From contig PBMO01000003.1 of assembly GCA_002722595.1 (NCBI GenBank), positions 11,588-75,587 of the forward strand: a stretch of DNA of 64,000 nt. Direction: 5' to 3'. This stretch comes from Methanobacteriota archaeon. Its GTDB lineage: Archaea > Thermoplasmatota > Poseidoniia > Poseidoniales > Thalassarchaeaceae. Numbering within the stretch: the first letter of the stretch is position 1; each line of letters opens with the position of its first letter. A program made the position numbers and the translations under genes. Below are positions 1 through 59,364 of the stretch, piece by piece. Below the pieces are notes generated by a model, which had not been told where the DNA came from, searched no databases, and saw nothing but the letters and a program-made list of their open reading frames with translations.

Positions 1-3000
1 ACACCTGGAACGTTGAATTCATACCTGACATTAACCTGCCAATCTCCTACAGTTACTGGGTCAAAAATAGCAGTAGTTCCCTGATCGGTTAACCAAGCAG
101 ATGCACTAGATTGATCCATTGACCATATGGCTGACACGCTCCACTCATTTCCATCTGCATCAGATGCATAGGCTGAGATTGTTGCGGTATCTTGGCCACT
201 GACAAGGGTCTGCACTGGCGTGCGTGCTTCAATTGATACCGCAATGCCATGGTTAATTGCCATTGGGACAATGACTTCAACACCCTCCAAGGTTGCTTTT
301 ACCCATGATGAACCTTGATTGGATGCCTCCCAAATTGCCGGTGAGCCTGCAACTAAATTACCATTCAACCAAGTCCACGATGTTATCGAAAGAGTCACCG
401 GTTCGCGGTTGCCTTGTACATCAATTCGTACGACACTTAGATTGACCGATTCATCCGCAGTCATGGTGATACTTTCCAACGTAGGGGAACTTGTAACAAT
501 GATAGTATTCCCTGGGCCAACTGCTGTGACCTCTAGGTCGGCAATATCTCCATATGTTACAGTCATAACATGTTCAGCATGTATCCCAAGGTCACTATCA
601 ACCCAGATATTCCAGACGCCGACATTATCGCCAGTATATTCTCCAGAGGAGTTATCGATGACACCATCTGAAGCACCCCAAGTGAGGACACCTGAGGTAC
701 TTCGATCCTTCAGATTACCGCGTTGATCATATACATCAACATCAAGCATTGTGTTGTTTCCAGCTTCGATAGTATTCGAGCCAGTTATGACAAAGTAATT
801 TGGAGCACCTGTTTCAACTGTGATTTCAATGTTCACTGCCGATATTGTTCCATCAGGGGCAACCCATGAAATGTTCATCCATTGGGTTCCTGCGGTCCAT
901 GGCTCCCAACTGACCTGATTAACAGGTGTTGATGTTGAGTATGCTTGGACCAAACCATCCCAAGTTGCACCTTGGAGGAAAGTGCCGTTGGTGATGTCAA
1001 TAGTAATCATCTCACCAGGGACTACATTTCCATTCACATCAATAACTTCTAGCACAGTTAAATCAAATATGTCATCTGCAGTCAGTGTAATGGATAATGG
1101 CACTACTACCAATTGTACAGGATTACCTGCTGTAACTGTGATGTTTACAGACTCTATGACTTGCCCATATGCTGCAGATACCGTAGTTATACCAGATTGA
1201 TCGGGGACAAAGTAACCATTAGAATCAATGGTTCCATCACTGCAAGACCAAATGACAGACCCCGGCAAATTATTGCCATTAGCATCTAGCAGGGAAGCGC
1301 TGAACTGCACCCCTGTGTCAGCATCTGTTGTCGAAGGTCCTGCCAAACTAATCGAATCAACTGATGTGTAATTAAAATCTAATACTGGACGATCAATTTG
1401 TGTTTCTTCCTCACTTGAATGAACTCCAATTTCCATGTGCCCAGTATTTGGCGAACCGATGATTACGATTGTAATCGTTCCATTCATAGAAGATAGGGCA
1501 CCGCTAACATCGAAATGCAACCAACCTCCCGTAAATGTCGAAGGGACACGTACTGTATCCAATGGACTTGTACTATAGTCTGTGCCAGCAAGGAGGCCGG
1601 GTGTTGACCAGTTGGCACTTGTTGATGCAGAATTCCAAGTTGCACCACTTTCAGCATAATTATTGTTCAAAACAGCATAAGCAGTCAAATCAAGGTGATT
1701 TGCCATCGAATATTCTGTAATTCCGCCACTGTAAAACGACAATTCTGCTGAATGTGGATTTACTGACAATTGGTCTAATGGCATCTGTCCCAAATCAATT
1801 TGGAAAAATGCAATTGACTGACCACTTGCAGATGTACCTAACTGCAATTCCTCATAGGAGCCATATGCAGAATTTGGATTTGAACTATCAATGAAAGTGT
1901 CCCAAATCGGCACATGTCCGAGGTCGTAAACATCAGAACCCTCTTGAATCTCTACTGTGTGAACGTGGTTTCCAAGAGGTGCTATGTCTGGATTACCTAT
2001 ACCAAATGTCCAAGGTACAGATCTCGCGCCTGGAACAGAACCATTCAGTGCTTGGACAGACCAAGTGTAAATTTCCCCTACTGCAAGATCAAAATTGGGT
2101 TGCCAACTGCAGTTGAATGCTGTTATTCCAGTAGAACACGGTATGAAACCGCTGCCAGTGTTCCAGTCTTGGAAAACCTGTGAACCACTACCATTACTCA
2201 ATGTGAGAACATATCCAGTTGCATCGCTTAGTCCATTCCAAGTTAAAATGGGTCTTGTTTCAGTTCCAAGAACATACTGCCCAACATCGTAAACAACCTC
2301 AAATTGTTCGGGTGATACAAGCGTTACTTGGGCTGGTGATGAAGCATTATTGGGATTATCAACATAATCAACTTCTAGTTCTGGCGCATAATCTGATGAA
2401 CCTTCAGCAGAATTGAAGTAAATAGTGCCAGACCAACCTGTTTTCAATGCCATATTGATGGCACCATTTGCGGCCCAAGAAGAGCGAGCTAAACTTGTGA
2501 CGTCCCACTCATACCAAACTCCTGCGTTTGTACTCGAAGATGTCATCGATGATATGGCTGTAGAATTGCACTGCGTACTTGGATTGAAGTTGTTCCAAGT
2601 TACAGCACTCTCACTAAATGAATTGCAATCATGGACAGAAATACTGTGTGCACCAGTCCCAGTAATACTTGCTACATACAAACGCAAAGTGACCGATGTT
2701 GGCAGCATAGTGCTTGGATAGGGGTACTCTGTTAAATCAATTGAAAGCAAGGAGACTGCTTCATGTGCAGATGAGTATGGATCTACCCCAACTGCAAGAG
2801 TTGTGTCTGTGCCGTGATTTTGATATTGCCCTATTACGTTAGAACCAATCCAAGTATCTGGCATTGTCGGAAGAAGGCCTGAATCTTCAAAGACGATTCC
2901 ACGTTGCATTGTTACTGAATAATTGCCAGCACCATCATCAGACCCTTGTTCTTCTGGAACACGGGAGCTGAATGGTTGAGACCAATTGCTGTAGATACCG

Positions 3001-6000
3001 TCTTGAACAGCCCTGACCCTCAAATTGTTCCAATGGTCACCCTGTCCAACACTTGCGGGTGTCCACAAAGTAAGATTGGCTAAATCAAATGTTGAGTTGC
3101 CCCAGGTTGATGAATTGCTTGATTCATAAATCCAAGTATCTGCTGTGAAGCGATCATTCAAGGAATGCTGAATCTGCCACGAATCAATCGAACCGGGACT
3201 CGGATGTGTCCATGTCGACCATAGCGGGTCAGTAGGCATTGGTCGCAATGAGTTCTCATCCCATGCAGTAAATGGGCCATTTGCCGTCAAATTACTGTCC
3301 CATATAGGTGCCACCGGCATGGTTTGAGAACCATTACGATATGTGATTTCAACATAGGGTCTGAATGCAGCATAGTTGCTTGATGCATGTTCCTGTATGA
3401 ATGAATGGCGCGCATACAAATTTGGATCCTCAGATGCAAACAGGAGTGAAAGTGTATCGTTGCCATAGATGTGGGCTTGTTGCATCAATTGAGTGACATT
3501 CCAAGTATACCATCCATTCCCACTAACATTAGTTGTTGCAAACGGTGTTTGTACATCATTGACACCATTAACACCAGATACTTGCCATGAATTGTTAGTT
3601 GCACAACTATTCCAAGTGACACTGGCTTCATCCCATCCACACAACACACCTGAGACGGAGATATCTGTATCGTAACTCGATGAACCACTGAGTCTATACA
3701 TCCACACTTGGGCATCAATTACTTGCCACTGTCCTCCATCCATTATAGGTACATTTGAAACATCAAATCGAACAAGTGAACGTGCTTCATGGCCGGCATT
3801 TGTGCATGCAGGGCCAGCAGCCGAAGACCCTACAGAAAGATAACTTGCTGAATTACCAAAAGCAGTATTTGCGTTACAAGAATCAATGTAGGCTCCTTCG
3901 GTAGTATCATATGCACCACTCGCAGTATGTGCATTACCATTTCGAAGATACACTGTGTTGTCAGTTGAATTGACTGGGACTGATATGTCATTGGGTATTC
4001 TGAAAATCTCATTCACAGAAGATGGGCCCACCATTAAGCCATTCATTGGAGCAACAAACCAACTCCAAGTAGTATCTTGGTCTGCTTGACCTCCTTCGAA
4101 TGTCAGATTCTGCAAATCCGTCTGGGACCATGACACCTCACTATTTGTGCATTCTACTCCATCCCAAATAACGCCATTTGCAATGGCACAAATAATCCAT
4201 CCATCGATATTGGTTATATCAGGGTGTGACCAATCAAATTCAATGACATCGTCAGATGTCATTGCAGGATATTCCCACACAATTTCATTGTTTACCGGAT
4301 AAACAAGTGTTGCAGGAGTAGAGGGGGTTGTTCTAGTTCCATTCATCCATGCCAAAGAAAGCACTGGTTCATTTGCTTCAAACTGTGTCTCAGTACTTGC
4401 TAGTACTATTCTATCTGAGGAATTTAGTTCGGCACTTAGAAGCAAATCTACCGAACTATTACCATTAGCGAGGGCATTCTGAGCAAGGCGAGTGAAGTCA
4501 AAAGAAATCCAATCACTAGCTGCTTGATCAAATTGGATATGTGTCCAATCACCTCTGTCCGTCGAACCTTGAGCTCCAATTGAGGACCAATTGTTTATCC
4601 CGTCGTAGGTCAATCCTGTTGCAGATTCATTCCAATCCTGAAGCGCATCAAAAGAGGCTACCGTGGGCGTACTCGAGTTGTTAGATAGAACATAAAACGA
4701 AATGGATGCTTCAACTAAACGCGCATTGGATGGCATTGGCAGTGCCCCAAGACCACTTATTGGAATCTCGACCAATGCACTGGATGTACCCGAAATGAAA
4801 AGTGTATCATCGGATTCATGCGAGTCATTTAAGTGGGCAGAATCCCATGAAATCCAGGTATCTGTAAACAGTGGCAGACTCCCATCAGACAACACATCTC
4901 CATGGCCCATTTCTACTACATAGGCCGTTGTGTTGTGGATGTTTTCTGAGGTCACATCTAGATCAGGAATCACAAATTCAGAGGACGTAGACCACAATCC
5001 AACTTGGCCAGTTTCTGAAATACCTCTTACCCGCCAATAGAAGGTTTCACCGCCAGTTAGATTATTTGAGAATGTGAAATTAGCATCACTAAATTCACTT
5101 GTATCAACCCAAGAAGAGTAGGTTGAAAGGGCACTGGACGAGAAACTCGGAGATTCATCAACCTGAACCTCCCAAGCATTAGCTACGGTAGAACCTGTTT
5201 CATTCCATGATAGAGTAGGGGTTTTGTCTACTGTGAAAGTGTAATCACCACTGAGAATCCAGTCTCCATTTGCTGGAGACATATCGATTGGAACGTCAGG
5301 TGCCGCATTTGAACCGTTGGTATATATCAGAACTAGTTCAGGCATTGAACCACTCCCTCGATCATAGAAAGTGACCGCATTCCAACTCTCAGACACCAAT
5401 ATGAAATCGAGACGCGAATCGGTGCGCATAGCACTCTGGGCTGCAGCCGTAACATTCCATTCATACCACGTATTGTCTGAACTGATGTCAATTGTGTCCA
5501 ACGTCTGCACTCTTTCTGAACCGCTAGCACCTACTGAATTCCAAGGAGTTACACCGTCTGTGGTATTCCAAGTAGCAGTACTTTCGACCCAATCATGCTC
5601 GCTACTTTCGTATGCAGTCATTGGAATATCAAAAGTCGATATGCCTGAGTTTTGCATAGTGCGTAGCCTCATCGTTGCAGAAACGATTGCGACGCCCTCG
5701 GGAAGTTGATGACTACGCAAATCACATCCAAAAAGTATGACCTGCGAATCAGATGCTGTCAAATCTTGACCATCCAGATTCATACCAGATGCGGGGCCAC
5801 CCTCAAGAGTTAAATCCGCACATTTCGGATATTCGAGATTGGAGTTCAGGTGTGTCCCATTACCATGACGGTAACGTAACTCATACTCATCATCCCCCAA
5901 ATCTGTTGAATTGATTTGGCTAATCAGCATAGTTTGCCCTATCCATGGACTCTGTTCATCATCCTCAACCATTAGCAACCGCCAATAGTACTCTTCAGCC

Positions 6001-7967
6001 CAGTCCAAATTCCACCCAGATGGAATCACAAACTCACCATTTGTGAGATCAAATCCATTGTTTGTCCGGCTATCTGCACTTAGTGGAAGGGATGCGCCTT
6101 GACCACTTGGCCACAGTTCAATGATAACATCACCAGGATTTCCGTTACTTTGAGTTGAAATGGATGGATCCCAAGACAATGTTGGAGTAGTGGTACCATC
6201 CAATTCCCAACCGTCTAAATCCCATGCAGCGCTGCCATCTGCGGGAGTGATATTTGTGGGACTAGGTGTAGCAGTAGAATCACCCCATGAATAAATCAAG
6301 TCTAGATGCGGACGATAACTCTCAGGCTCATCACTGGATGCGATTTCGACTTCTTCTCCTGCATCACCCATTCCTCTGATGATGAAATCCAAACTGCCAT
6401 TTTGTCCACTCCGCAAGTATTGTTGGACGAATGGAGTGGCATCGAATGTGAAAGTGGATGTCCCTGTTTGATCTCCTTCAACAACACCCAGTAATCCGTT
6501 TTCTGCAAGGTTGTCCAAGCCTCCGGAATTCCAAGAGCTACCATTACTGCGATTAGCATAATTCAACTCACTGAATACATGACCTGTGCCAGATTCCATA
6601 ACCCAGGCTGAAATCATAGGTGCACCTGTCCGACCGGTACGCCGGATATTTAGGGAAGCCTCGTGAATAGTTACGTTATCGTGGATTGGGACATTTTCCA
6701 TGTCAACTCGTATAAGTGAGTGCATGTCGCTCTCATTTGTCAAATTCGAATGCCCAACTCGCATGCGTAAGTCATCGTCACCAATGTAGGTGCTGTTTCC
6801 AGATAATACCCAAGTATCATGTATAATTTTGTAGAGACCAAGTGTACCTGTCCTTAGTTCAATCTCAGCCTGACTATTGAAGTTTAGAGACCCAGTTTCA
6901 GCAGGTAAACCAAAGTAACCCACTTCCCAAGGACCTGCGATTGAATTGTTCAAAGAACGCATCCTGAACCACACCCACATGCCTCCATCAATTGTCGAAT
7001 CGCAATTCGAAGAACACTGAAATTCATTTGTTGAAAATAAACTCGAATCATCCAAACTGTTCCAAGTCAAGTCATTATTGTGTAGTGAACGGAAATCATC
7101 GCTAGCAGAGAATTGAATTTCTAGGTCACCCGATGTCAGATTTGACCATGAGATTTTTGGACTCCGATCAGGAGCAATTACCAATTCAGTAGGGTCAGCG
7201 ATTATTGTACCATTTGTAGGGCCAGCAACAGCGATGCTGCCCTGGAGTGGGGCAGTCCCCAAAGTGTACTCAAACGAAATAGATGGCCGTTCCCCAGATG
7301 TAGGATGCTCACTAGAGGCACACCAAACAAGGGAACCGATACCTGAGATTACGATACTCAGATTAGAATCGCCATTTCGTAACGATTCCTGAACTAGAGA
7401 TGTTATATTCAAAGAAAATACACCTCTGCTAGCAGTGATATTATCCTGATAACCTGGCTGCCATAGGCCTCTGTCAGTATGGACGCCTTCTACACCACTT
7501 ACATTCCAAGGAGAGCCGGTATCGCTCAAATTATGTGTCGCATTGGCTTCATTGAAAGGTGTAAGTAGGCGGGCTGGATAGAGGGCGGTATCATTTCCTT
7601 CAAGCATCTGTGTAGAAAAACCACGACATGTCAAATCCAAAGTTGCTGCACTAACAACTGCAGTAGTTGGCAAAGAGCCACCTCCATTGAGGGTTAACGG
7701 TATTGTGGCAAGAATCCTCGCACTAGTCACAAGTGGATCATCTCCAACTAACAAATTCTGAGCACTGCCATAATTTGTTGATGGCTGGCTAGAATTAGTC
7801 TGTGTGTCCTGAGAAAGTGACGTACTTGCGGTTAGAAATCGCGGTTTCGGTTCCTCTTCAAGTGGGGTTTCATTACTCAATAATTGCCCCCATGTGCTGA
7901 ACAACATCAAGCAAACCATCAAAATGGCTGCAATTGTTGAACTCCTGTTTTTTACTCCGTACATCAT
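1..7967 (-). CDS. Giant secreted/surface glycoprotein. The 5' end is complete and the 3' end is cut by the window edge (at least 2655 codons in window). It has an N-terminal signal/anchor, seven DNRLRE-like modules alternating with FN3-like modules, then Ig-like (Big_2-like) repeats.
   Basis: I translated the minus strand by hand from ATG-ATG at 7967/7964 (MMYGVKNRSSTIAAILMVCLMLFSTWGQLL...). It reads to position 3 with no in-frame stop. The frame was spot-checked at about 6350, 4979, 2759 and 1259. The ORF track omits it because no stop lies inside the window. Every listed ORF in 1-8000 is at most 135 aa and in another frame. The protein has a hydrophobic N-terminus, dozens of N-x-S/T sequons and recurring motifs such as DTWI...SL(V/I)RFD...A-x-L...W-x-E-x-x-(V/A)TWN. 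Confidence 0.85.
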   Translation of the reverse strand, partial: MMYGVKNRSSTIAAILMVCLMLFSTWGQLLSNETPLEEEPKPRFLTASTSLSQDTQTNSSQPSTNYGSAQNLLVGDDPLVTSARILATIPLTLNGGGSLPTTAVVSAATLDLTCRGFSTQMLEGNDTALYPARLLTPFNEANATHNLSDTGSPWNVSGVEGVHTDRGLWQPGYQDNITASRGVFSLNITSLVQESLRNGDSNLSIVISGIGSLVWCASSEHPTSGERPSISFEYTLGTAPLQGSIAVAGPTNGTIIADPTELVIAPDRSPKISWSNLTSGDLEIQFSASDDFRSLHNNDLTWNSLDDSSLFSTNEFQCSSNCDSTIDGGMWVWFRMRSLNNSIAGPWEVGYFGLPAETGSLNFNSQAEIELRTGTLGLYKIIHDTWVLSGNSTYIGDDDLRMRVGHSNLTNESDMHSLIRVDMENVPIHDNVTIHEASLNIRRTGRTGAPMISAWVMESGTGHVFSELNYANRSNGSSWNSGGLDNLAENGLLGVVEGDQTGTSTFTFDATPFVQQYLRSGQNGSLDFIIRGMGDAGEEVEIASSDEPESYRPHLDLIYSWGDSTATPSPTNITPADGSAAWDLDGWELDGTTTPTLSWDPSISTQSNGNPGDVIIELWPSGQGASLPLSADSRTNNGFDLTNGEFVIPSGWNLDWAEEYYWRLLMVEDDEQSPWIGQTMLISQINSTDLGDDEYELRYRHGNGTHLNSNLEYPKCADLTLEGGPASGMNLDGQDLTASDSQVILFGCDLRSHQLPEGVAIVSATMRLRTMQNSGISTFDIPMTAYESSEHDWVESTATWNTTDGVTPWNSVGASGSERVQTLDTIDISSDNTWYEWNVTAAAQSAMRTDSRLDFILVSESWNAVTFYDRGSGSMPELVLIYTNGSNAAPDVPIDMSPANGDWILSGDYTFTVDKTPTLSWNETGSTVANAWEVQVDESPSFSSSALSTYSSWVDTSEFSDANFTFSNNLTGGETFYWRVRGISETGQVGLWSTSSEFVIPDLDVTSENIHNTTAYVVEMGHGDVLSDGSLPLFTDTWISWDSAHLNDSHESDDTLFISGTSSALVEIPISGLGALPMPSNARLVEASISFYVLSNNSSTPTVASFDALQDWNESATGLTYDGINNWSSIGAQGSTDRGDWTHIQFDQAASDWISFDFTRLAQNALANGNSSVDLLLSAELNSSDRIVLASTETQFEANEPVLSLAWMNGTRTTPSTPATLVYPVNNEIVWEYPAMTSDDVIEFDWSHPDITNIDGWIICAIANGVIWDGVECTNSEVSWSQTDLQNLTFEGGQADQDTTWSWFVAPMNGLMVGPSSVNEIFRIPNDISVPVNSTDNTVYLRNGNAHTASGAYDTTEGAYIDSCNANTAFGNSASYLSVGSSAAGPACTNAGHEARSLVRFDVSNVPIMDGGQWQVIDAQVWMYRLSGSSSYDTDISVSGVLCGWDEASVTWNSCATNNSWQVSGVNGVNDVQTPFATTNVSGNGWYTWNVTQLMQQAHIYGNDTLSLLFASEDPNLYARHSFIQEHASSNYAAFRPYVEITYRNGSQTMPVAPIWDSNLTANGPFTAWDENSLRPMPTDPLWSTWTHPSPGSIDSWQIQHSLNDRFTADTWIYESSNSSTWGNSTFDLANLTLWTPASVGQGDHWNNLRVRAVQDGIYSNWSQPFSSRVPEEQGSDDGAGNYSVTMQRGIVFEDSGLLPTMPDTWIGSNVIGQYQNHGTDTTLAVGVDPYSSAHEAVSLLSIDLTEYPYPSTMLPTSVTLRLYVASITGTGAHSISVHDCNSFSESAVTWNNFNPSTQCNSTAISSMTSSSTNAGVWYEWDVTSLARSSWAANGAINMALKTGWSGTIYFNSAEGSSDYAPELEVDYVDNPNNASSPAQVTLVSPEQFEVVYDVGQYVLGTETRPILTWNGLSDATGYVLTLSNGSGSQVFQDWNTGSGFIPCSTGITAFNCSWQPNFDLAVGEIYTWSVQALNGSVPGARSVPWTFGIGNPDIAPLGNHVHTVEIQEGSDVYDLGHVPIWDTFIDSSNPNSAYGSYEELQLGTSASGQSIAFFQIDLGQMPLDQLSVNPHSAELSFYSGGITEYSMANHLDLTAYAVLNNNYAESGATWNSASTSANWSTPGLLAGTDYSTSPLDTVRVPSTFTGGWLHFDVSGALSSMNGTITIVIIGSPNTGHMEIGVHSSEEETQIDRPVLDFNYTSVDSISLAGPSTTDADTGVQFSASLLDANGNNLPGSVIWSCSDGTIDSNGYFVPDQSGITTVSAAYGQVIESVNITVTAGNPVQLVVVPLSITLTADDIFDLTVLEVIDVNGNVVPGEMITIDITNGTFLQGATWDGLVQAYSTSTPVNQVSWEPWTAGTQWMNISWVAPDGTISAVNIEITVETGAPNYFVITGSNTIEAGNNTMLDVDVYDQRGNLKDRSTSGVLTWGASDGVIDNSSGEYTGDNVGVWNIWVDSDLGIHAEHVMTVTYGDIADLEVTAVGPGNTIIVTSSPTLESITMTADESVNLSVVRIDVQGNREPVTLSITSWTWLNGNLVAGSPAIWEASNQGSSWVKATLEGVEVIVPMAINHGIAVSIEARTPVQTLVSGQDTATISAYASDADGNEWSVSAIWSMDQSSASAWLTDQGTTAIFDPVTVGDWQVNVRYEFNVPG
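1400..7760 (-). repeat. Protein-level seven-fold super-repeat of about 0.94-1.02 kb per unit inside the giant ORF (DNRLRE-like beta-sandwich plus FN3-like module).
   Basis: The hallmark W-N codon pair of the (V/A)TWN-type motif recurs in frame. The W codons sit at 7506, 6531, 5568, 4632, 3612, 2595 and 1635, giving spacings of 975, 963, 936, 1020, 1017 and 960 nt. The units are diverged at DNA level, so this is not a recent tandem duplication. Confidence 0.7.
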
Positions 7968-8112
7968 GGCCCTCGGCTTCGCACAGAACAAACTACTGTT
8001 AATCACTTACGGTGCATGACCATACTACGTATGGTCTATGCAGGCCACTTTTTTCGCTGCATTGTCAGTGGATAGGTTCATTGACAACCGCTACAAACAG
8101 CAATTGGTTCCG

Positions 8113-10376: not shown

Positions 10377-10502
10377 TGCCGGGAGCGGGGCTCGAACCCG
10401 CGACCTTCGGATGTCTCAGACATTTCTAGGGTTATCTCGCTCATTTCTCACCTTAATGGTAGTCCTATGAGTCCGACGCGCCACCAACTACGCCACCCCG
10501 GC
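10377..10502 (-). tRNA. tRNA with CAU anticodon (elongator Met, or Ile2 if C34 is modified) carrying a 53-nt intron at the canonical 37/38 position.
   Basis: The cloverleaf was folded by hand. The acceptor is GCCGGGG/TCCCGGC with discriminator A. The D arm is GCGT-AGTTGGTG-GCGC. The anticodon stem is TCGGA/TCCGA with loop CTCATAA once spliced. The T arm is GCGGG-TTCGAGC-CCCGC. The anticodon CAT lies at 10467-10469 on the minus strand. Confidence 0.88.
10413..10465 (-). other. tRNA intron with a canonical helix-bulge-helix-bulge-helix (BHB) splice motif.
   Basis: The central 4-bp helix pairs CUCA (nt 32-35) with UGAG near the intron 3' end. It is flanked by the 3-nt bulges UA^G and AC^A, which carry the two splice sites. 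The outer helix GAC/GUC lies within the intron. Confidence 0.8.
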
Positions 10503-11987: not shown

Positions 11988-13544
11988 ATGGAGAGCGATA
12001 TGGGCGGTAAAGGCGAAGAGTTGTCATGGCGCAGAAGTCAGGCATTATCAGGCGGCGGGATGAAACGCCTTGAGAACCTCCGTGAAACCGGTAGAGGCAC
12101 TGCTAGAGAACGACTGGATGCATTGTTAGATCCCGATAGTTTTGTCGAAACTGACGCATTAATCAACCACCGAAATCACCAAGGAAACATGCACGTGCAC
12201 CCACAATTTGGCGATGGAGTAGTTGCTGGCCACGGAAGTGTAGACGGGCGAAGAGTGTTCTGCTTCAGTCAGGACTTCACCGTTTTTGGTGGTTCAATGG
12301 GAGAAATGCATGCTAAGAAAATTACCAAAGTGATTGAAATGGCAGAAAGAGCACGTGTCCCACTAATCTGTATCTGGGATGGAGGCGGCCAACGGGCTCA
12401 CGATGGTGTCCACTCACTCGCAGCAACTGGGGAAATGCTAGACCGCTTGGTATCCTGCTCAGGGCGAATACCAATGGTCAGTTTGGTCCTCGGGCCAGTT
12501 GTAGGAGTATCTGCTCTTGCAGCTGCGATTGCTGATTTTGTAATCTTAGGTGAAGAACATGGGCAACTTTTTCTTTCAAGTCCGTTAGAAACTGCCGAAA
12601 CAGTCTCGGGTGAGATGAGTAATGAAGATTTAGGCGGTGCACAAATGCATGCATCCCGATCAGGAATTTGTTGCCTCACTGCAGATGATGAGAATGATGC
12701 CATGGACATTGCAATTGAATTGCTTTCCTTCTTTCCAGATTATTGTGGTGCGAGTCCTCCCCATCTAGATTCAGGAGATCCACATGACAGAGATTGCCCT
12801 ATACTCAAAGAGATTGTACCAAGTGATAGCAATCGTCCATATGACATTGTTAAAGTCATCCAAGGTACGGTTGACGACTCACATTTTGTTGAATTATTCC
12901 CCAATTATGCAGACAATATCGTTGTTGGTATGGCGCGATTAGCAGGCCACCCAATCGGCATAATTGCTAACCAACCAAAAGTCCTCGCCGGATGCTTAGA
13001 TATTGATGCTAGTATCAAAGCCGCACGTTTCATCCGTACATGTGACGCATTCAACATACCCCTCCTCTCTTTCGTCGATGTACCTGGTTTTTTACCAGGT
13101 ACTGTGCAAGAATGGGGTGGTATTATACGGCATGGTGCAAAAATGCTGTATGCATATGCTGAGGCAACTGTACCTATGCTTACTGTCGTCACACGCAAAG
13201 CGTATGGAGGTGCCTATTTGGCTATGGCATGTAAGCATCTGGAATCTGACTACAACGTGGCTTGGCCTACGGGAGAACTTGCAGTCATGGGAGCAGAGGG
13301 CGCCGTCAATATCATCCACAGGCGCGAATTGAAAGATGCCGAAAACTATCAAGAAAAACACGCAGAACTTGTTGAGGATTACCGAAATAAATTTGGAGAC
13401 CCTTATGTGGCAGCAAGAAATGGGTGGTTGGATGATGTTATTGAACCAAATGAAACACGGTTAAGGCTCATACGTGCACTGAAAAGCCTACTCTCAAAAA
13501 GAGTCTGGCAGCCCCCAAGAAAACACGGAAACATTCCACTCTAG
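11988..13544 (+). CDS. Acyl-CoA carboxylase carboxyltransferase (beta) subunit, propionyl-CoA carboxylase / methylmalonyl-CoA carboxyltransferase family.
   Basis: Its 518 aa include TARERLDALLDPDSFVE, two crotonase-like halves, FGGSMGE and GGAYLAM-type motifs. Confidence 0.88.
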   Translation: MESDMGGKGEELSWRRSQALSGGGMKRLENLRETGRGTARERLDALLDPDSFVETDALINHRNHQGNMHVHPQFGDGVVAGHGSVDGRRVFCFSQDFTVFGGSMGEMHAKKITKVIEMAERARVPLICIWDGGGQRAHDGVHSLAATGEMLDRLVSCSGRIPMVSLVLGPVVGVSALAAAIADFVILGEEHGQLFLSSPLETAETVSGEMSNEDLGGAQMHASRSGICCLTADDENDAMDIAIELLSFFPDYCGASPPHLDSGDPHDRDCPILKEIVPSDSNRPYDIVKVIQGTVDDSHFVELFPNYADNIVVGMARLAGHPIGIIANQPKVLAGCLDIDASIKAARFIRTCDAFNIPLLSFVDVPGFLPGTVQEWGGIIRHGAKMLYAYAEATVPMLTVVTRKAYGGAYLAMACKHLESDYNVAWPTGELAVMGAEGAVNIIHRRELKDAENYQEKHAELVEDYRNKFGDPYVAARNGWLDDVIEPNETRLRLIRALKSLLSKRVWQPPRKHGNIPL

Positions 13545-16285
13545 TCTAATTCGGCGAAATCTGCCTCCAAGGCATCTAGATCATATTCATCAGAATTCGA
13601 CTCCTTTTCATTGGCAAGTATTTTTTCCATATCTGAATTAGATATTGTTGCAATCATGTATAATCCAATTATGGCGATTACTGAAGCAACTACTATTGCA
13701 AGAACAACCCAAATTGAGAAGGGGCCATTTTGTGTATTGACTGGGATTTGCGGTAAATTTTGTTCGCCTAAATCGGCATCAGAAAGAGGGACTGTATGAT
13801 AATACACTTTCACAGAGGACCAATTCTGATTCTCCAATACTCGCACTTCAAGGCGATGGGCTCCAGCTAGAAGTTCACTTGTGCTAACCTTGACAGCGCA
13901 TTCCCACATATTCGTATTCGCTTCAATACAAACCGTTTCAGCATCATCCCATAGTTTCCCGTCCCATCGAGTTTCTATTGTCCAAGGAGAAGCATCATCT
14001 GGATCATAAATCACTACCGTGAATGAAACTTCTTCATCTCCACTAATGGAGCCCCATGTAAGTTGAGATGGATCGTTTACTTCTGATACTATCAATTCAA
14101 GATTTACAGTCGATTGCCCATCGATACTGGTTGCTGTGAGGTTCCACTCACTAGAAATTCCCGACCAGTCGGATGAAGGAACTATTCTCAATACACTGGT
14201 CAAAACATCCACCTGTATGTGTGGATGCCCTCCGGTTATTGAAAACGATAAGTCATCACCATCTTCATCCCACCCGATTTCAGATAGGGGAATTTCTATT
14301 GGGGTATCCTCAATTAATTCCACAGTGGTCAAATTTAGAAATGGAGGGTCAGCCACAGATGCAATATTGACTCGAATCAAAGATTGGATTGGTTGACTGG
14401 TTAAGTCTCCGACCCATAAGTCAACCGTCGCCACACCATTCCAATTTGTTGTGGGTGTGACTGTGAGATTAGATTCATCCCAAGAAACTGTCAATCCAGA
14501 ATCGCAGGTTGCATTAATGATGTGAACTGAATTACCTTCTGGATCCATGAAATATGGTCTAATGTCTATCGTATCCGAAGTTCCATCCTCTACCAACTGA
14601 AGTTCGGGAAGTGGATTCAATTGATTCACTGAGTCATCAACTGCGAAAACACTCGCATTGAGATTAAATTGTATTGAGAAATTGGTATCGTATCGATCGA
14701 ATGCTGTTAAATTCAGAATTTCAGTACCTGCCCATTCGGGCGACCCTGTATGTTCACACCTCAATGAGGTTTCTTTGAGGAAACAATGCATTTGATTAGT
14801 ACTTGGCAAATGGGCATCCATCTCAATGAACATTGAGGTGCCATCGGGGTCGGTGACTATTTCAGAAAATGGAATCTCAGCAAATCCGTGTTGTGGGACA
14901 CTCAAATTTGGAAGGGGGTTTGCCAGAACAGGTTCCTGATTTATCCGATAGAAATCAACGTCTATGAATGATGGCATCCCAAACCAATTCACATTCACAC
15001 GTACGGTTCTATTACCAGGAGGAACTCCCTCTGTAGGCACATCACAATCTGTTTTAGATAGTTCCCCTGGTACAGTTGATGATGTGAATACACCTGTGGA
15101 ATTGACCCCATAGGTTTCAAAATCTGCAGGATCCCACCAATCCCCGCCTTCCGTGATTGTACATGATACTGTGGTGCCAATTGGTGCACTACCATCACGA
15201 TGTAACAATTGGGTTGAGACAGAAACAACCCTTCCATTCATCCCATCCCATTCATTTGTGTCAGAAGAATTGTAGTCCATTGGCAAAAAACGAGCAGCGG
15301 TCAAGTCTTCATCAATATATGAATCCGAATCTGATGGACTTTCCCAATTTGTTTCTCGATTAGTAGCATTTAGCCACTGAGTATGATCTCCTTTCAGCAT
15401 CAAATCGAAATATGGTAGAATATGGTCTATGGCGTGTCCCTGCTGAACATCTCTAGTCATTGTTGCATCACCATCATTAAAGCCCTCAAAGAAGTCATTC
15501 TCATCTTGATATTGGATATGATTGGCACCTATTACTGACATATAGTGCCATGGAAATTCATGGTTTTCCAACCAGACCTCAACGTTCGACTCAGATGGTG
15601 CCATCTCGTCGAAACTTCCTGTTAGATAAAGCCCCATTCCGGGCCCTGGAGATGGGCCAAAACTAGAACTGGATACATCCGTATTTACATCTGAAAGGGC
15701 TAATCCCACTATTGCGTTGGGAAGTGATGTGTTTGCAAGATATTGCAACCAATCCCCTGACATTAGTAATTGACAAGTTGCTGCTTGTTTTGCACCAACT
15801 CCATGACCACCGAAGCCCCAATTTTTTGAATCCATAGTCACATTGCCAAAGTAACCTTGTAGTCCAAAATATAGGTTAATTGCCTCAACACATTGTACAG
15901 ACGTTTGTTCGGCAGTCCAATCGGGAGGCAGAACCACAACAAGATAACCCGCTGATGCTAAATTATTCCCAACCCAATCGTATTGATCAACCTCTTCTCC
16001 TTCATCACCAAACCACATTACAAGAGGGTATGGGCCCGAGGCATTGTCAACAGGAGTTGAGAAGCCATTCGATAATGCAGGATAATATGCTAAAGAATTG
16101 TGAGTTTCATTTTCACCATCCTCCCAAGACAAATATGACGTGCCAACAGGAAAAGTATCAACTTCAACTGAGGGCGAGAATGATTCACCACTAGCTTCCG
16201 CGACAGATATTAGTGAGAATAATATGAGAAGCGCCAATAGTGTAGCCACTCTATTTCCGGCCATCAAACCTCTGAGATTTAACAT
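13541..16285 (-). CDS. Large type-I surface protein: signal peptide, alpha/beta-hydrolase-like domain lacking the nucleophile Ser, cadherin/Ig-like repeats, C-terminal TM helix and an acidic tail.
   Basis: The signal peptide reads MLNLRGLMAGNRVATLLALLILFSLISVAEA. The PLVMWFGDEG...AGYLVVVLP...GFGGHGVGA layout resembles the dienelactone-hydrolase/cutinase fold. The C-terminal TM segment is FSIWVVLAIVVASVIAIIGLYMI. It has many N-x-S/T sequons. The ATG lies at 16285, with a GTG at 16288. Confidence 0.8.
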   Translation of the reverse strand: MLNLRGLMAGNRVATLLALLILFSLISVAEASGESFSPSVEVDTFPVGTSYLSWEDGENETHNSLAYYPALSNGFSTPVDNASGPYPLVMWFGDEGEEVDQYDWVGNNLASAGYLVVVLPPDWTAEQTSVQCVEAINLYFGLQGYFGNVTMDSKNWGFGGHGVGAKQAATCQLLMSGDWLQYLANTSLPNAIVGLALSDVNTDVSSSSFGPSPGPGMGLYLTGSFDEMAPSESNVEVWLENHEFPWHYMSVIGANHIQYQDENDFFEGFNDGDATMTRDVQQGHAIDHILPYFDLMLKGDHTQWLNATNRETNWESPSDSDSYIDEDLTAARFLPMDYNSSDTNEWDGMNGRVVSVSTQLLHRDGSAPIGTTVSCTITEGGDWWDPADFETYGVNSTGVFTSSTVPGELSKTDCDVPTEGVPPGNRTVRVNVNWFGMPSFIDVDFYRINQEPVLANPLPNLSVPQHGFAEIPFSEIVTDPDGTSMFIEMDAHLPSTNQMHCFLKETSLRCEHTGSPEWAGTEILNLTAFDRYDTNFSIQFNLNASVFAVDDSVNQLNPLPELQLVEDGTSDTIDIRPYFMDPEGNSVHIINATCDSGLTVSWDESNLTVTPTTNWNGVATVDLWVGDLTSQPIQSLIRVNIASVADPPFLNLTTVELIEDTPIEIPLSEIGWDEDGDDLSFSITGGHPHIQVDVLTSVLRIVPSSDWSGISSEWNLTATSIDGQSTVNLELIVSEVNDPSQLTWGSISGDEEVSFTVVIYDPDDASPWTIETRWDGKLWDDAETVCIEANTNMWECAVKVSTSELLAGAHRLEVRVLENQNWSSVKVYYHTVPLSDADLGEQNLPQIPVNTQNGPFSIWVVLAIVVASVIAIIGLYMIATISNSDMEKILANEKESNSDEYDLDALEADFAELD

Positions 16286-16311
16286 CACACTTCAAACCGA
16301 CGCAATTGAGT

Positions 16312-19172: not shown

Positions 19173-20690
19173 ATGAGAATCGCAATGGTACTTTCTCTTC
19201 TGATGCTTGGTGCAATGCTTTCTGGATGTTTAGGAGGTGAAGACCGTGAATATTCGGACTTTGAAGGGTGTACAACTGATGAAGAAATATCTTGTGAAAT
19301 TGTAGAACCTATTGAAAATCAGACTGCTAATGAATCAAACCCGCCGATGTATGACTTGATTTATGCACGACCAAATGGTGTTGCACTTAGATTGGCTGTG
19401 CATCTCCCCAATACCGATGGCCCACATCCAGTGATAATGTATATTCATGAAGGTGAATGGAAAAGTGGAACACGCGAATTGAGTGAAGACCATGCGGCAA
19501 GACAACTTGTCAAGAAGGAAGGTTGGGCTGTAATCAGTGTAGAATACAGATTATCCAATGAAGGTATTTGGCCTGCACAACTTGAGGATTTAGAAACCGC
19601 ATTATATTGGATAAATAATAACTCAGATACTTACAACTTAGACACAAACACAACTGTTGTCTGGGGTTCTGGTGCTGGTGGACATCTAGCCGCAATGTTG
19701 GCTGTAAATTCCAATCACAGTATATCTGCTGCAATTGACTGGTTTGGGCCAACAGATCTTGTCGAAATGGTAGAAATTTCCAACGCAACGGGGTCAGATT
19801 ATTCTTCAATCAGTGATTTAATTGGTTGTGACCCTATGAATGGGAGTGAGTGTACCAACCAAACAATGAGTGCATCTCCAGTCCACTTAACCACTGGTTC
19901 AACAGTACCAATGCTCATTATGCATGGTACTGATGACGAGAATGTACCACACAATCAGAGTTTGTCAATGAGCCAATCATTGTCTACCCCAAGATGGATG
20001 GTCACAATCGAGGGAGGGGGGCATGGTGCTATGAGTCACCCTTGGAAAGAGAATATGGTTGTGCAAATCGTTGCTGATTTCCTTGAAAACGTGACGTCAG
20101 AATCTGTTCAAAACCGACAAATTACTGTCGATGCTGGCCCTGAAACAGGGACTTGGGAAGGTCAGCGTGTCCACGATGTTCAGACCTTGGCAAGACCTCC
20201 AGGAGGATCTTGGCAGGATTGGAGATTATCCGATTACCTGGTTCCTAATTGGAATAATAACACAAACGACCCGTGGATCGTCATTCAATTTCTAAGTACA
20301 GATTGCAGCCATTGTTGGAATGCCGCAGATGATATTGAAGTTCTTCATAATCAATACAAAGATTCAATCATACTATTCTCATTCGCTGTTAATTTTAGCT
20401 CAAACAACAATTTCAACGCTAGTCTGAGTGAGATTGGAGCATTCCAAGATCGCACTCCATACCAAGGCTGCTATTATGCAACTCGTGATTGTGCAGACCG
20501 ACCCGGGCCAGCGCATAATTGGACTTATGTTGATGACAGGGATCAAACGCAGATGTATGCATTCCATTCGCAAGGGACACCCATGTATGTAATCATACAA
20601 CCCGATGGAATTATTTCTTGGCATCAATACCAAAATGATGGACAAAGTGTAGATGACGCCCTAGCTGAACTATTCCCAGGAGATGGCTAA
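19173..20690 (+). CDS. Predicted lipoprotein fusing an alpha/beta-hydrolase (esterase-like) domain to a C-terminal thioredoxin-like (TlpA/ResA-type, CxxC) domain.
   Basis: An AGGTGA Shine-Dalgarno-like box lies upstream. The lipobox is LSGC. It has ISVEYRL, GSGAGGHLAA, MHGTDDENVP and GGGHG hydrolase motifs. It then has VIQFLSTDCSHCWN and GTPMYVIIQPDG thioredoxin-fold motifs. Confidence 0.78.
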   Translation: MRIAMVLSLLMLGAMLSGCLGGEDREYSDFEGCTTDEEISCEIVEPIENQTANESNPPMYDLIYARPNGVALRLAVHLPNTDGPHPVIMYIHEGEWKSGTRELSEDHAARQLVKKEGWAVISVEYRLSNEGIWPAQLEDLETALYWINNNSDTYNLDTNTTVVWGSGAGGHLAAMLAVNSNHSISAAIDWFGPTDLVEMVEISNATGSDYSSISDLIGCDPMNGSECTNQTMSASPVHLTTGSTVPMLIMHGTDDENVPHNQSLSMSQSLSTPRWMVTIEGGGHGAMSHPWKENMVVQIVADFLENVTSESVQNRQITVDAGPETGTWEGQRVHDVQTLARPPGGSWQDWRLSDYLVPNWNNNTNDPWIVIQFLSTDCSHCWNAADDIEVLHNQYKDSIILFSFAVNFSSNNNFNASLSEIGAFQDRTPYQGCYYATRDCADRPGPAHNWTYVDDRDQTQMYAFHSQGTPMYVIIQPDGIISWHQYQNDGQSVDDALAELFPGDG

Positions 20691-28404: not shown

Positions 28405-29214
28405 ATGAACCCTATCCCTAGTAACATGCGAGTTGTCATAACTGGCTCTGCTGGCCTCATAGGAGGCATTGTCTATGACCATCTATCTGCAATGGGTCAT
28501 CAAGTGATAGGGATTGATCGCCCACTACAGGAATGGTTAGCAGCAGGCAGAAATGTAGAGGATGAAATGGCGCGTAAGAGGGTGGACTGTGAAATCGATT
28601 TGTCAAAAATTTCCGACTCTGAATTGTGCGCAATCCTAGAGGGAGCTGATTGTTTAATTCATCTTGCAGCGGATGCAAATCCCTCTAATTCGGATTCGTC
28701 GATGATTCGAAACAATATCGAGTTGACTACAACGATATTCAGGTGTGCAAGAGACATACAAATTAGGAGGATTATTGTTGCTTCAAGTGGACTTTCGCAA
28801 GTAGGGCTTGAACCTTTGTTTGAGAAAGGAGGGCCAATGCATGGAAAATTAATCCAGATTGAGGATGGAATTGCACCAACTTCAACGTATGGTGCTTCGA
28901 AAATATATGCAGAGATAATGGCAGAAATGCATTCGAGAACTCATGGCATAGAAACTATTGCTGTTAGAATTGGAACTGTTATACCAGATGAAACAGAACA
29001 TTGGCGCAGAGGAGGTCGACTACAGGCCACCGCATTTTTGGCAGAAGATGTTCGCAGATTCTTTGAAGCAGCTTTACAAAATCCAATAGATGGATACTTG
29101 CTAACGTCTGCTCAATCAGACTCACCAGGTAGGTTTCTTGACCTTGAACCTGGGCTTTCGGTACTCAATTGGTCACCAATAACTTGGCCAATTGGCCCAG
29201 AGAATCTGAAATGA
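28405..29214 (+). CDS. NAD-dependent SDR of the epimerase/dehydratase family, uronate-dehydrogenase-like.
   Basis: It has VVITGSAGLIGG (Rossmann fold) and YGASKIYAE (YxxxK). The AVRIGT...FLAEDV tail resembles Udh. An alternative ATG lies at 28426. Confidence 0.72.
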   Translation: MNPIPSNMRVVITGSAGLIGGIVYDHLSAMGHQVIGIDRPLQEWLAAGRNVEDEMARKRVDCEIDLSKISDSELCAILEGADCLIHLAADANPSNSDSSMIRNNIELTTTIFRCARDIQIRRIIVASSGLSQVGLEPLFEKGGPMHGKLIQIEDGIAPTSTYGASKIYAEIMAEMHSRTHGIETIAVRIGTVIPDETEHWRRGGRLQATAFLAEDVRRFFEAALQNPIDGYLLTSAQSDSPGRFLDLEPGLSVLNWSPITWPIGPENLK

Positions 29215-31220
29215 ACCTGTTCGTACCCCCGCCGTCCATGAGTGGTAAAGTCACCCTGGGTATTGATGTAGGGACTACTGCCACAAAGGCACTATTACTT
29301 TCAGAAGATTCCAGTTGGGAATTGCATTCATGGCCATCAGATGAAAGCCTATGGGGAAATCTTCGAAATTGGTTGGCTGAGAAAAAATGCCAAATCGAAC
29401 GTGTAGGTATTACAACTCATGGCCCATCGGTAGTTGTGATTAACGAAAGAGGAATACAAGGTAAACCGATATATTGGTTTGATGAAATACCCGAGAGTTG
29501 TATTCGAGAAAATGAAGGTGAACATATACTCCCGCAAACTAGGGCTTGGGTTCCGTCCAGAATTGCACAATGGATAGTTGAAAATGGTCCATTAAATGAT
29601 GGCATTGCTGTTCAACTTAAGGACATGTACAACTGGGAACTTACCGGCAATATTGCAAGAGATTCTCGATCGATGCGAGGTTTTTCTAGTGAAGAATACA
29701 TGCATCTCCCAGAGAATGTGATCGGTAAAGTGACAAAGAAAGGATCTGAATTATCAGGAATTGATGAAGGTGCTGAAGTCATATGTGGTTGCGATGATTT
29801 AACTGCAGGAGTCCTTGGTATCGGCGCCCATGAAGGTGTATTATTCAATCTAGCAAATACCTCTGAACATGTTGGCCAAGTTGGGGGGAGATATATCGAT
29901 GGCATGAGTTGGTTACCACCACTAGGCCGCTTGCCATCAATAAGTTACAATGCCACTCCTGGAAGAAAACAAAATCAACCACTGGACCAAAACTCTGAAT
30001 CTGTTGACCTGATTCGTGAAAAATTTCCTGAACTTGAAATGTGGATGGGGGGTGGTCTTACTAATGTCCAGTCAATCGTTGATTCAAGACACGCAAAAGT
30101 CTGTGCAGGGGCAGAAGTTAGTGCATTGGGTGTAGCAAAGTTGGCAAGGAAACAAAAACAGGCAGTCATATTTGGTGCCGGAAAGGTAGGAAGAGGTTTT
30201 CTTGCACAATTGCTGGTAAGATCGGGTTGGAAGATCATCATCTCTGATACACATTTACCTACGATCCAAGAATTGAAAAAATCTGGGCAATGGACAATAT
30301 TCAATCTGTACACTGGAGAAGAGGATTTGATTACTGCAGATGGGATTTTCCTCAATGAAAATATTACTGAAAGTGTGTTGAGGGATACGTCACTAATTAT
30401 GACTTCAATGGGGGCGAACCATCTAGAAAAATGGGCACACGATATCCGTGAAATTTTGTGTGATAGGCTCGAACAAGGTTGCATCGATTTGATTCTTGCC
30501 GAAAATCATCCAAGACCTGCAGAGGCAGTACGTTTGGCTCTCCTAGAAAATGCAACCGAATATCAAGAAAAATTGATTGAACAAAATCTTGGAATATCTC
30601 AAGCACAGGTATTGCGTTCATGTATAGAACCTGATTTGTCTCAAAAACCGACGACTGTGCAAATCCAAAACCACTGGACTTTGCCAATGGATGGTGATGC
30701 TCTACTTACGAAACTAGATGTTTTGGGGTTCAATCCACTACCGAATTTTGAGAAGGAGTTGACGCGTAAACTTTTCACGTACAATTGTGTAAATGCAATG
30801 ATATGCTATATTGGATATCTGAAGGGGTATGAATGGCTATCAGAAGCAGCTAATGATGAATATATCTCTAATCTTGCTCTAAAGGCCGGAATGGAATCTT
30901 CAGCAGCACTGGTATCTGCATATAAATTCGAAAAACACGAACAAGAACATTGGTGCAATGAGGCATTGAAAAAATATCAAGACAGGAGTATTAGAGACCC
31001 AATCGAACGCAATGCAAGGGATCCTATCAGGAAATTAGGCCCCTATGAGCGTTTACTCGGACCAATTAATCTTTGCAAAAAAGAGGGTTTGCCCTTTGAT
31101 ACACTACTAATTGGTGTTGCAGCAGCACTCAGATACCCTGGAGCCAAAATACATCATGAACTCAATCTTGAGGGGGCATCAATACAACTTGATTCTCTAC
31201 TTGCCACAGAATCAATTTGA
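29211..31220 (+). CDS. Fusion protein: compact FGGY-family carbohydrate kinase (N-terminal about 325 aa) joined to a mannitol-dehydrogenase-family oxidoreductase (MtlD/UxuB-like, C-terminal about 345 aa).
   Basis: The kinase half has VTLGIDVGTTATKALLL and MGGGLTN...SALGVAKLA (FGGY N and C motifs). The dehydrogenase half has AVIFGAGKVGRGFLAQLL, KLFTYNCVNAMICYIGYLKGY and DPIRKLGPYERLLGP (MtlD family). The ATG at 29211 overlaps the upstream stop (ATGA). Confidence 0.75.
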   Translation: MNLFVPPPSMSGKVTLGIDVGTTATKALLLSEDSSWELHSWPSDESLWGNLRNWLAEKKCQIERVGITTHGPSVVVINERGIQGKPIYWFDEIPESCIRENEGEHILPQTRAWVPSRIAQWIVENGPLNDGIAVQLKDMYNWELTGNIARDSRSMRGFSSEEYMHLPENVIGKVTKKGSELSGIDEGAEVICGCDDLTAGVLGIGAHEGVLFNLANTSEHVGQVGGRYIDGMSWLPPLGRLPSISYNATPGRKQNQPLDQNSESVDLIREKFPELEMWMGGGLTNVQSIVDSRHAKVCAGAEVSALGVAKLARKQKQAVIFGAGKVGRGFLAQLLVRSGWKIIISDTHLPTIQELKKSGQWTIFNLYTGEEDLITADGIFLNENITESVLRDTSLIMTSMGANHLEKWAHDIREILCDRLEQGCIDLILAENHPRPAEAVRLALLENATEYQEKLIEQNLGISQAQVLRSCIEPDLSQKPTTVQIQNHWTLPMDGDALLTKLDVLGFNPLPNFEKELTRKLFTYNCVNAMICYIGYLKGYEWLSEAANDEYISNLALKAGMESSAALVSAYKFEKHEQEHWCNEALKKYQDRSIRDPIERNARDPIRKLGPYERLLGPINLCKKEGLPFDTLLIGVAAALRYPGAKIHHELNLEGASIQLDSLLATESI

Positions 31221-31246
31221 TAGGCATTAGTTGACCTTGAGGTGAC

Positions 31247-59338: not shown

Positions 59339-59364
59339 AGGGTGACCAGAAAGAACACCCCTAT

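Follow-up and report, generated by a model that had tools for sequence, protein, structure and literature searches.

Results

The giant gene and its product

The DNA considered here is a stretch of 64,000 nucleotides (the window, hereafter) from contig PBMO01000003.1 of a Thalassarchaeaceae archaeon, a member of the Poseidoniales. The Poseidoniales, or Marine Group II (MGII), are the most abundant archaea of ocean surface waters; to our knowledge they have no cultured member, and we know of essentially no description of their cell surface. At the start of the window, on the minus strand, lies most of a giant gene, whose frame is free of stops from window position 8006 to 3, with its 3′ end leaving the window at the window's start. 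The probable start codon is the ATG at 7967 or 7964, giving the N-terminus MMYGVKNRSS.... A full-length database protein, P0001, has 3,103 residues and is 100% identical across the part encoded in the window. The region codes for the outer part of a very acidic giant surface protein of this MGII archaeon, and the literature searched held no description of the protein, or of a surface layer (S-layer), giant adhesin or envelope protein of the Poseidoniales.

From its N-terminus the giant protein comprises a signal peptide, seven DNRLRE/CBM96 modules with six FN3-like modules interposed between them, an immunoglobulin-like (Ig-like) stalk, a transmembrane helix and a tail, and together these elements account for every residue of the 3,103 (Table 1 gives the part that lies in the window). 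The Ig-like tandem region covers about 800 residues. Hydropathy places a single transmembrane helix at about residues 2996-3022 of P0001, followed by a cytoplasmic tail of 80 residues (3023-3103) that is acidic and rich in tryptophan. The predicted topology is type I, with the N-terminal array outermost and the Ig stalk beside the membrane. The mass is about 335 kDa, the isoelectric point (pI) 4.05 and the lysine content 0.3%. N-x-S/T sequons number 67, against 43 expected from composition, and 14 of the 65 in the window part are kept in at least 14 of 17 orthologues; both the excess and the conservation fit an N-glycosylated extracellular protein. Being secreted, C-terminally anchored, acidic and rich in sequons, the protein has the traits expected of an archaeal S-layer or envelope glycoprotein, traits that are necessary but unspecific. 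Pfam and NCBIfam searches detected no catalytic family in it.

Seven modules of the DNRLRE/CBM96 family

The repeat structure of the N-terminal array emerges consistently from comparisons of different kinds. Against the whole protein, the NCBIfam model NF033679 (DNRLRE_dom) matches in seven stretches (E = 1.5e-82, 275.5 bits) and Pfam PF24517 (CBM96) in six (E = 1.4e-55, 188 bits). Scored singly against NF033679, each of the seven units exceeds the curated cut-off of 34 bits (Table 1). A BLAST search of the whole protein against itself returned the identity hit alone; the repeats become visible after cutting into 350-residue pieces, which give 17 off-diagonal alignments among units. These alignments have identities of 19-28% and E-values as low as 7e-13, and are mostly about 250-350 residues long, three being shorter (117-192). 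With module profiles cut from an alignment of 19 orthologues, hhalign relates all 21 pairs of DNRLRE modules at a probability of at least 95.5%, and 14 of the 15 pairs of second modules at 92.8% or above, the second modules of units 5 and 6 (F5 and F6) being connected via other modules only. Between the DNRLRE modules and the second modules hhalign found no similarity. When a hidden Markov model (HMM) built from the seven DNRLRE modules was run on all six reading frames of the window, it matched the giant open reading frame (ORF) exactly seven times and nothing else.

A link to solved structures is found at the level of the sequence profile. The profile of all seven modules matches the PDB entries 8WAB (E = 2e-7) and 7VBO (E = 6e-7). 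A PDB search with the single sequence of module 5 returned nothing, and one with a profile dominated by unit 6 missed both entries, which were found by the seven-module profile only. Taken with the fold comparisons described below, these HMM results establish that the seven first modules belong to the DNRLRE/CBM96 sequence family.

No direct or tandem repeats were found in the array at the nucleotide level, implying that the seven copies are not an artefact of assembly, and independent contigs, drawn from many samples and species, have the seven-unit architecture too. Lack of nucleotide repeats, low protein identity and recurrence on independent contigs together rule out a chance resemblance or an assembly artefact in the form of a collapsed or duplicated repeat, either of which we regard as vanishingly improbable.

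An earlier note on this DNA, made from the letters alone, had described a composite unit of a DNRLRE-like and an FN3-like module recurring seven times. The seven-fold recurrence is borne out by the NF033679 stretches, the off-diagonal alignments and the full set of hhalign pairs, and the quoted spacing of 936-1020 nucleotides agrees with unit lengths of 317-346 residues (325, 329, 317, 324, 346 and 321 for units 1-6). The composition needs amendment: the DNRLRE module is present in all seven units, but unit 7 lacks the FN3-like module and is followed by Ig-like domains of the Big type, so that the array is 7 + 6. Its extent, given as 1400-7760, is slightly larger, at window 1359-7880. The coordinates given for the hallmark tryptophan codons are right, but they fall in the true T-W-N column in units 3, 5, 6 and 7 only; in units 1 and 2 the tryptophan belongs to a 'W-N-S' column about ten residues downstream, and in unit 4 to a 'W-x-E-S' column eight residues upstream. 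The consensus written for the unit proves approximate, each motif element occurring in three to six units, and unit 1, for example, has D-T-Q-T for D-T-W-I. The assignment of the first part to the DNRLRE family stands, all seven units passing the curated cut-off and the unit 6 model matching 8WAB and 7VBO. For the second part, described as FN3-like, the model of unit 6 does show an FN3-type fold, but Pfam fn3 finds no match.

Predicted folds of the modules and the stalk

An AlphaFold2 model of unit 6, computed from an alignment of orthologues and paralogous units, has a mean pLDDT (predicted local distance difference test score) of 83.9 and a predicted template modelling score (pTM) of 0.81. 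In a Foldseek search of the PDB, its first half had 8WAB as the best match (E = 1.6e-8, template modelling (TM) score 0.74, 21% identity), and 7VBO, the founder of CBM96, also matches, with a TM score of 0.66. The second half resembles FN3 domains of titin (titin Fn3), irisin (4lsd), tissue factor and DCC, with single-domain TM scores of about 0.54-0.63. Pfam fn3 (PF00041) matches none of the six second modules, and only the second module of unit 3 (F3) reaches another Pfam family, PF25788 (Ig_Rha78A_N); the PDB profile matches of the second modules to FN3con and DCC are marginal (E 0.45-0.92). The FN3 assignment of the second modules accordingly rests on fold: they are predicted to have an FN3-type fold, with F1-F5 tied to F6 by hhalign.

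The Ig-like region encoded at window 3-1358 was modelled as about five β-sandwiches. Foldseek matched it to an RTX adhesin's tandem Ig extender (6xi1), to the S-layer proteins SbsB, Sap, EA1 and SbsC, and to cadherins. Pfam Big_1 scores below its cut-off on this region.

Two local features stand out in the array. The linker Q-G-S-D-D-G-A-G-N, which joins FN3-like module 5 to DNRLRE module 6, is the most conserved peptide of the protein and is near-invariant across the order; it might bind metal, act as a hinge or mark a site of processing. Module 6 carries a pair of cysteines (...HDC-NSFSESAVTWNNFNPSTQ-C..., window 2571-2630, minus strand) that is invariant in 19 of 19 aligned orthologues, which suggests a conserved disulfide in module 6 only.

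Table 1. Window positions of the giant ORF and of the modules that it encodes, from the N-terminus
Feature	Position in window	Strand	Basis
Giant ORF	3..7967	-	Encodes the N-terminal 2,655 residues of 3,103; remaining C-terminal 448 residues lie past the window start
Signal-peptide-like N-terminus (MMYGVKNRSSTIAAILMVCLMLFSTWGQL)	7881..7967	-	Basic n-region, then hydrophobic stretch; hydropathy flags residues 8-12 onward
DNRLRE/CBM96 module 1, most divergent copy	7257..7880	-	NF033679 41.6 bits; hhalign at least 96.6% to other DNRLRE modules
FN3-like module 1	6906..7256	-	hhalign 92.8-98.0% to F2-F6
DNRLRE/CBM96 module 2	6282..6905	-	NF033679 37.9 bits
FN3-like module 2	5919..6281	-	hhalign 94.8-98.6% to other FN3-like modules
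DNRLRE/CBM96 module 3	5313..5918	-	NF033679 44.9 bits; 41% identity in MGIIa orthologues, second most conserved module
FN3-like module 3	4968..5312	-	Pfam PF25788 Ig_Rha78A_N 28.3 bits against a cut-off of 27.4; hhalign
DNRLRE/CBM96 module 4	4338..4967	-	NF033679 36.9 bits
FN3-like module 4	3996..4337	-	hhalign 92.8-98.6% to other FN3-like modules
DNRLRE/CBM96 module 5	3330..3995	-	NF033679 70.7 bits; also Pfam Disaggr_repeat 34.3 bits
FN3-like module 5	2958..3329	-	hhalign 94.9-98.5% to F1-F4; direct F5-F6 comparison not significant
DNRLRE/CBM96 module 6, most conserved copy	2355..2957	-	NF033679 71.6 bits; AlphaFold2 pLDDT 83.9; Foldseek 8WAB TM 0.74, 7VBO TM 0.66
Linker motif Q-G-S-D-D-G-A-G-N, start of unit 6	2922..2948	-	Invariant columns in 19-orthologue alignment; low pLDDT
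FN3-like module 6	1995..2354	-	Foldseek FN3 domains (titin Fn3, 4lsd) TM about 0.55-0.63; weak profile match to FN3con
DNRLRE/CBM96 module 7, no FN3-like module after it	1359..1994	-	NF033679 52.7 bits; alignment
First (about five) Ig-like β-sandwiches of the membrane-proximal stalk	3..1358	-	AlphaFold2 pLDDT 89.2, pTM 0.56; Foldseek; stalk continues past the window

Distribution, age and genomic setting

The relatives of the giant protein are all about 3,000-3,140 residues long and share 30-65% identity; one carries the NCBI title 'DNRLRE domain-containing protein [Candidatus Thalassarchaeaceae archaeon]'. When one genome from each GTDB species was scanned, with the linker Q-G-S-D-D-G-A-G-N as the search pattern, 93 relatives came up. 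The 80 loci listed of these 93 all belong to Poseidoniales or to metagenome-assembled genomes (MAGs) of unclassified archaea, bar two bins with bacterial titles, and they include both Thalassarchaeaceae (MGIIb) and Poseidoniaceae (MGIIa). The two exceptions, labelled Salipiger bermudensis and a Rhodobiaceae bacterium (loci L036 and L046), hold a giant gene of the usual length at 31-32% identity, most likely through contamination during binning. The MAG SP314 has one complete giant gene and another copy that is cut off where its contig ends (loci L061 and L076), which could be a paralogue or reflect a mixture of strains. Among 1.8 billion cluster representatives searched there are about 13 clusters (at 50% identity) of proteins of about 3,000 residues, each with seven matches to the composite unit.

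When the units are compared singly between orthologues, each unit of the window protein always scores highest against its counterpart of the same number in the relatives, the bit-score matrices being diagonal even where overall identity is 30%. This implies that the duplications predate the split of the two Poseidoniales families and that the copies have not been homogenised. On this sequence evidence the units arose by ancient duplication, each having since been kept distinct and non-interchangeable throughout the order. Position-specific matching and the absence of nucleotide repeats uphold the earlier note in taking the copies as old and selectively maintained, free of artefact. That the protein is archaeal is likewise confirmed by orthologues named Thalassarchaeaceae or Poseidoniales and by the archaeal housekeeping genes around it.

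The order of these neighbouring genes is conserved in MGIIa and MGIIb: carboxyltransferase, GatD, an intron-containing tRNA, the RFC small subunit and the giant gene, with the RFC gene transcribed divergently from the giant gene. Between MGIIa and MGIIb the identity is 68% for RFC, 47% for GatD and 30% for the giant protein, which thus evolves fast, as surface proteins do, yet keeps its architecture. The tRNA, at window 10377-10502 on the minus strand, was identified by an Rfam match spanning 126 nucleotides against a 71-position model, implying an intron; with ARAGORN, the window yielded no tRNA.

Other surface proteins and genes of the window

At the end of its cytoplasmic tail the giant protein has a tryptophan-rich motif (DGTEWWQDDDGTWWYRDPEMEDWEEW) without a Pfam match. 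Directly downstream of the giant gene and beyond the window, in both MGIIa and MGIIb, lie genes for one or two further type-I surface proteins of 812-1,093 residues with no Pfam family (L001, 19441-25142; L035, 19138-21777), and these proteins end in a related motif, GWY...(Y/H)W...G(Q/E/S)W. The shared motif may be a cytoplasmic docking or sorting signal. A regular expression for it gave no strict match in other ORFs of the window and one looser look-alike.

A second large surface protein, of 1,229 residues, is encoded at window 55769-59458 (minus strand). It has PKD and CARDB domains, a pI of 4.05 and 0.7% lysine, and its C-terminal region contains PPGWTMEQWNHYGAQW, which loosely resembles the tail motif of the giant protein. 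At 40714-43323 (plus strand) a single ORF joins an M28 peptidase domain (residues 97-330) to a Major Facilitator Superfamily domain (452-818), a peptidase-transporter fusion that fits peptide scavenging. The only carbohydrate-related enzymes seen in the window are encoded more than 20 kb from the giant gene, at 29169-34804 (plus strand), where a gene resembling mannitol dehydrogenase adjoins one for a GH38 alpha-mannosidase.

Discussion

What might such an array bind? We propose that the giant protein is a membrane-anchored, glycosylated, fibrillar surface protein. Its distal CBM96-type modules, set apart by FN3 spacers above an Ig-like stalk, would bind multivalently to a polymer that is probably a carbohydrate, and we judge the case for this proposal to be evenly balanced. 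The C-terminal helix would serve as the membrane anchor, the Ig-like string as a flexible stalk and the FN3 modules as spacers, while the N-glycosylated CBM96-FN3 array would reach outward, at the far end and facing the ligand. The seven lectin-type modules would then hold the polymer at several points at once, with algal or particle exopolysaccharide as candidate ligands. The proposal derives from the solved relatives, which are described as binders of acidic polysaccharides, and from the occurrence of further DNRLRE/CBM96 relatives in alginate, hyaluronate, pectate and PL8 lyases. For 7VBO, alginate binding has been measured (PMC9971899); for 8WAB, the description as chondroitin-sulfate-binding is that of the PDB entry title. 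By analogy, the placing of putative binding modules distally on a proximal extender also resembles fibrillar adhesins. The 'multivalent glycan-binding array' of the earlier note is in this light a reasonable hypothesis and not a result: the seven CBM96-family modules are there, but the alginate-binding residues of 7VBO are absent.

Several observations weigh against a lectin array. Mutagenesis of TM6-N4, the module of 7VBO, identified K10, K22, K25, K27, K31, R36 and Y159 as its alginate-binding residues (PMC9971899), and all seven are replaced or deleted in every module of the giant protein, as judged from alignments of 15-16 orthologues per module. The position of K27 is a conserved glycine, K31 falls in a gap, and R36 is replaced by A, M, Q, S, S, A and C across the modules. 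The Ca2+ ligand D82 and the D140 position of TM6-N4 are likewise not conserved. The ligand is therefore unlikely to be alginate bound in the manner of the CBM96 founder. Each DNRLRE module has at most one lysine and a net charge of -11 to -25, which argues against direct binding of acidic polymers such as those of the characterised relatives, unless divalent cations form a bridge. No carbohydrate-active enzyme (CAZyme) domain is present in the protein, and no polysaccharide-utilisation genes lie immediately beside its gene. The AlphaFold2 models cover unit 6 and the Ig-like region only, the other units being assigned by homology with hhalign. The DNRLRE fold also serves protein-protein contacts, in TGF-beta prodomains and BamH, and the fixed repeat number, housekeeping chromosomal position and order-wide presence would be more natural in a core component of the envelope than in an adhesin specific to a niche.

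Of these points, the argument from charge carries less weight than it might seem to. The other predicted secreted or surface proteins of the window are as poor in lysine: together with the giant protein (3-7967, minus strand), those encoded at 13541-16288 (minus), 19173-20690 (plus) and 55769-59458 (minus) have about 0.3-1.1% lysine and pI values of 4.05-4.33, against 2.5-5% lysine and a pI of about 5-6 for most cytoplasmic proteins. The same composition in these other secreted proteins means that low lysine and acidity are neither special to the giant protein nor decisive, and we have down-weighted the charge argument accordingly. As to nomenclature, the modules are of the CBM96 family by sequence and are not carbohydrate-binding modules (CBMs) in the strict CAZy sense, given that there is no enzyme and that the binding residues are not conserved.

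The strongest competitor, which we consider possible but clearly less probable than multivalent ligand binding, is a structural role in the cell envelope, as an S-layer-like or fibrillar coat in which the modules touch one another, adjacent envelope proteins or glycans of the cell itself. An acidic composition, N-glycosylation sequons and a C-terminal transmembrane anchor are common in archaeal S-layer glycoproteins, and the giant protein is acidic, is rich in conserved sequons and has such an anchor. It occurs throughout the order at a fixed position in the core genome, with seven invariant, position-specific units and a nearly constant length. The type-I surface proteins encoded directly downstream, with their related cytoplasmic tail motifs, also favour an envelope role, as does the failure to find an S-layer protein of the Poseidoniales in the literature searched. 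Besides adhesins, the Ig-like region matches the S-layer proteins SbsB, SbsC, Sap and EA1 of bacteria, although these S-layer matches reflect generic tandem Ig-like domains and have low whole-chain TM scores. DNRLRE was first defined in cell-surface proteins of Methanosarcina, and the domain is reported in S-layer proteins and disaggregatase. On the other hand, 335 kDa is unusually large for a lattice-forming subunit. The protein has also diverged far more quickly than the products of the genes beside it (30% identity, against 68% for RFC), a rate that fits either role. All in all, the fixed repeat number, core position, order-wide presence and adjacent surface-protein genes fit an envelope role at least as well as a lectin array.

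The modules might instead bind protein, capturing extracellular proteins or peptides for a heterotroph that degrades protein, or docking envelope proteins or viruses. Between the seven-module profile and the inhibin beta-A prodomain there is a weak match (E = 0.08), the Pfam model TGFb_propeptide reaches 29.1 bits on the giant protein, and BamH uses a fold like that of 8WAB in a protein complex. MGII have been described as degraders of extracellular protein (PMC6336850), and the lack of conservation of the carbohydrate-binding residues also speaks for this explanation. The nearest relatives in both sequence and structure, 8WAB and 7VBO, bind polysaccharide, however; the resemblance to prodomains is at the level of fold only, and we think protein binding improbable. 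The presence of CBM96/DNRLRE modules in polysaccharide lyases raises the further question of whether the giant protein is the accessory part of a lyase or hydrolase, a true CAZyme. This is contradicted by the lack of any catalytic family and of any unassigned stretch big enough to hold one, and we give it almost no credence.

A broader version of the ligand-binding proposal can be put forward as a speculation that we rate as doubtful. The giant protein may be the main outer coat, or 'antenna', of MGII, inherited vertically since the origin of the order, with each of its seven modules having its own specificity, and it may tether cells to phytoplankton exopolymers or particles or organise the cell's own glycan envelope. 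An association of MGII with algal blooms has long been noted; if the coat idea is true, the protein would give a molecular handle on that link and would be a candidate for the envelope protein of the order. Irrespective of its exact role, a conserved 335-kDa protein encoded at a single locus is an obvious candidate for contact with particles, algal polymers or viruses, or for an envelope scaffold, and antibodies, recombinant glycan-binding work and metaproteomic tracking would have a defined target in it. It introduces no new domain or principle, given that the family is known, that orthologues are already labelled by NCBI and that multi-copy arrays occur in other phyla. Its interest is moderate, and chiefly for marine microbiologists.

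Comparison with known systems

The best characterised relative is TM6-N4 of Dp0100 from Defluviitalea phaphyphila (7VBO; PMC9971899), which is of the same family by HMM and by profile (E = 6e-7) and has the same β-sandwich. Dp0100, like the giant protein, combines the module with several FN3 modules (PMC9971899). The two differ in that TM6-N4 is one module within an enzyme and takes internal alginate chains in a groove lined with lysine and arginine, whereas the giant protein has seven modules and no enzyme. The closest match in both structure and sequence profile is 8WAB, deposited under the name 'DNRLRE domain-containing protein'; it belongs to a chondroitinase, a glycosaminoglycan lyase, and binds a sulfated polyanion, in contrast again to the enzyme-free giant protein.

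An archaeal cell-surface setting is shared with the DNRLRE and disaggregatase-related proteins of Methanosarcina, which have one or more copies per protein (PMC2447325; Pfam PF06848). Adindla et al. described DNRLRE from these surface proteins in 2004 (PMC2447325), and the domain has been CBM96 since 2022. Unit 5 provides a direct link, reaching the cut-off of Disaggr_repeat (34.3 against 33.9 bits). Methanosarcina belongs to another archaeal class, however, and the composite DNRLRE-FN3 unit has not been reported there. At the level of topology, the giant protein is also like the fibrillar or RTX-type adhesins (6xi1), in which a long string of Ig-like domains likewise lies between an anchor and distal putative ligand modules. 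These adhesins are not whole-protein homologues: the giant protein has a C-terminal transmembrane anchor, no RTX repeats and a fixed number of repeats.

Large secreted proteins with several DNRLRE copies are not confined to the Poseidoniales and are met in other metagenome sequences. MEM7475839.1 from Planctomycetota has nine stretches and MBX7235145.1 from Caldilineales five, and many others have 2-10 copies. In the multi-copy proteins that were inspected, the best match spans the DNRLRE half of the composite profile only (about positions 13-250). Only the Poseidoniales proteins of about 3,000 residues and their fragments showed the full DNRLRE-FN3 unit repeated with DNRLRE copies numbering exactly seven, and this fixed 7 × (DNRLRE-FN3) arrangement appears, from the sequences compared, to be specific to the Poseidoniales.

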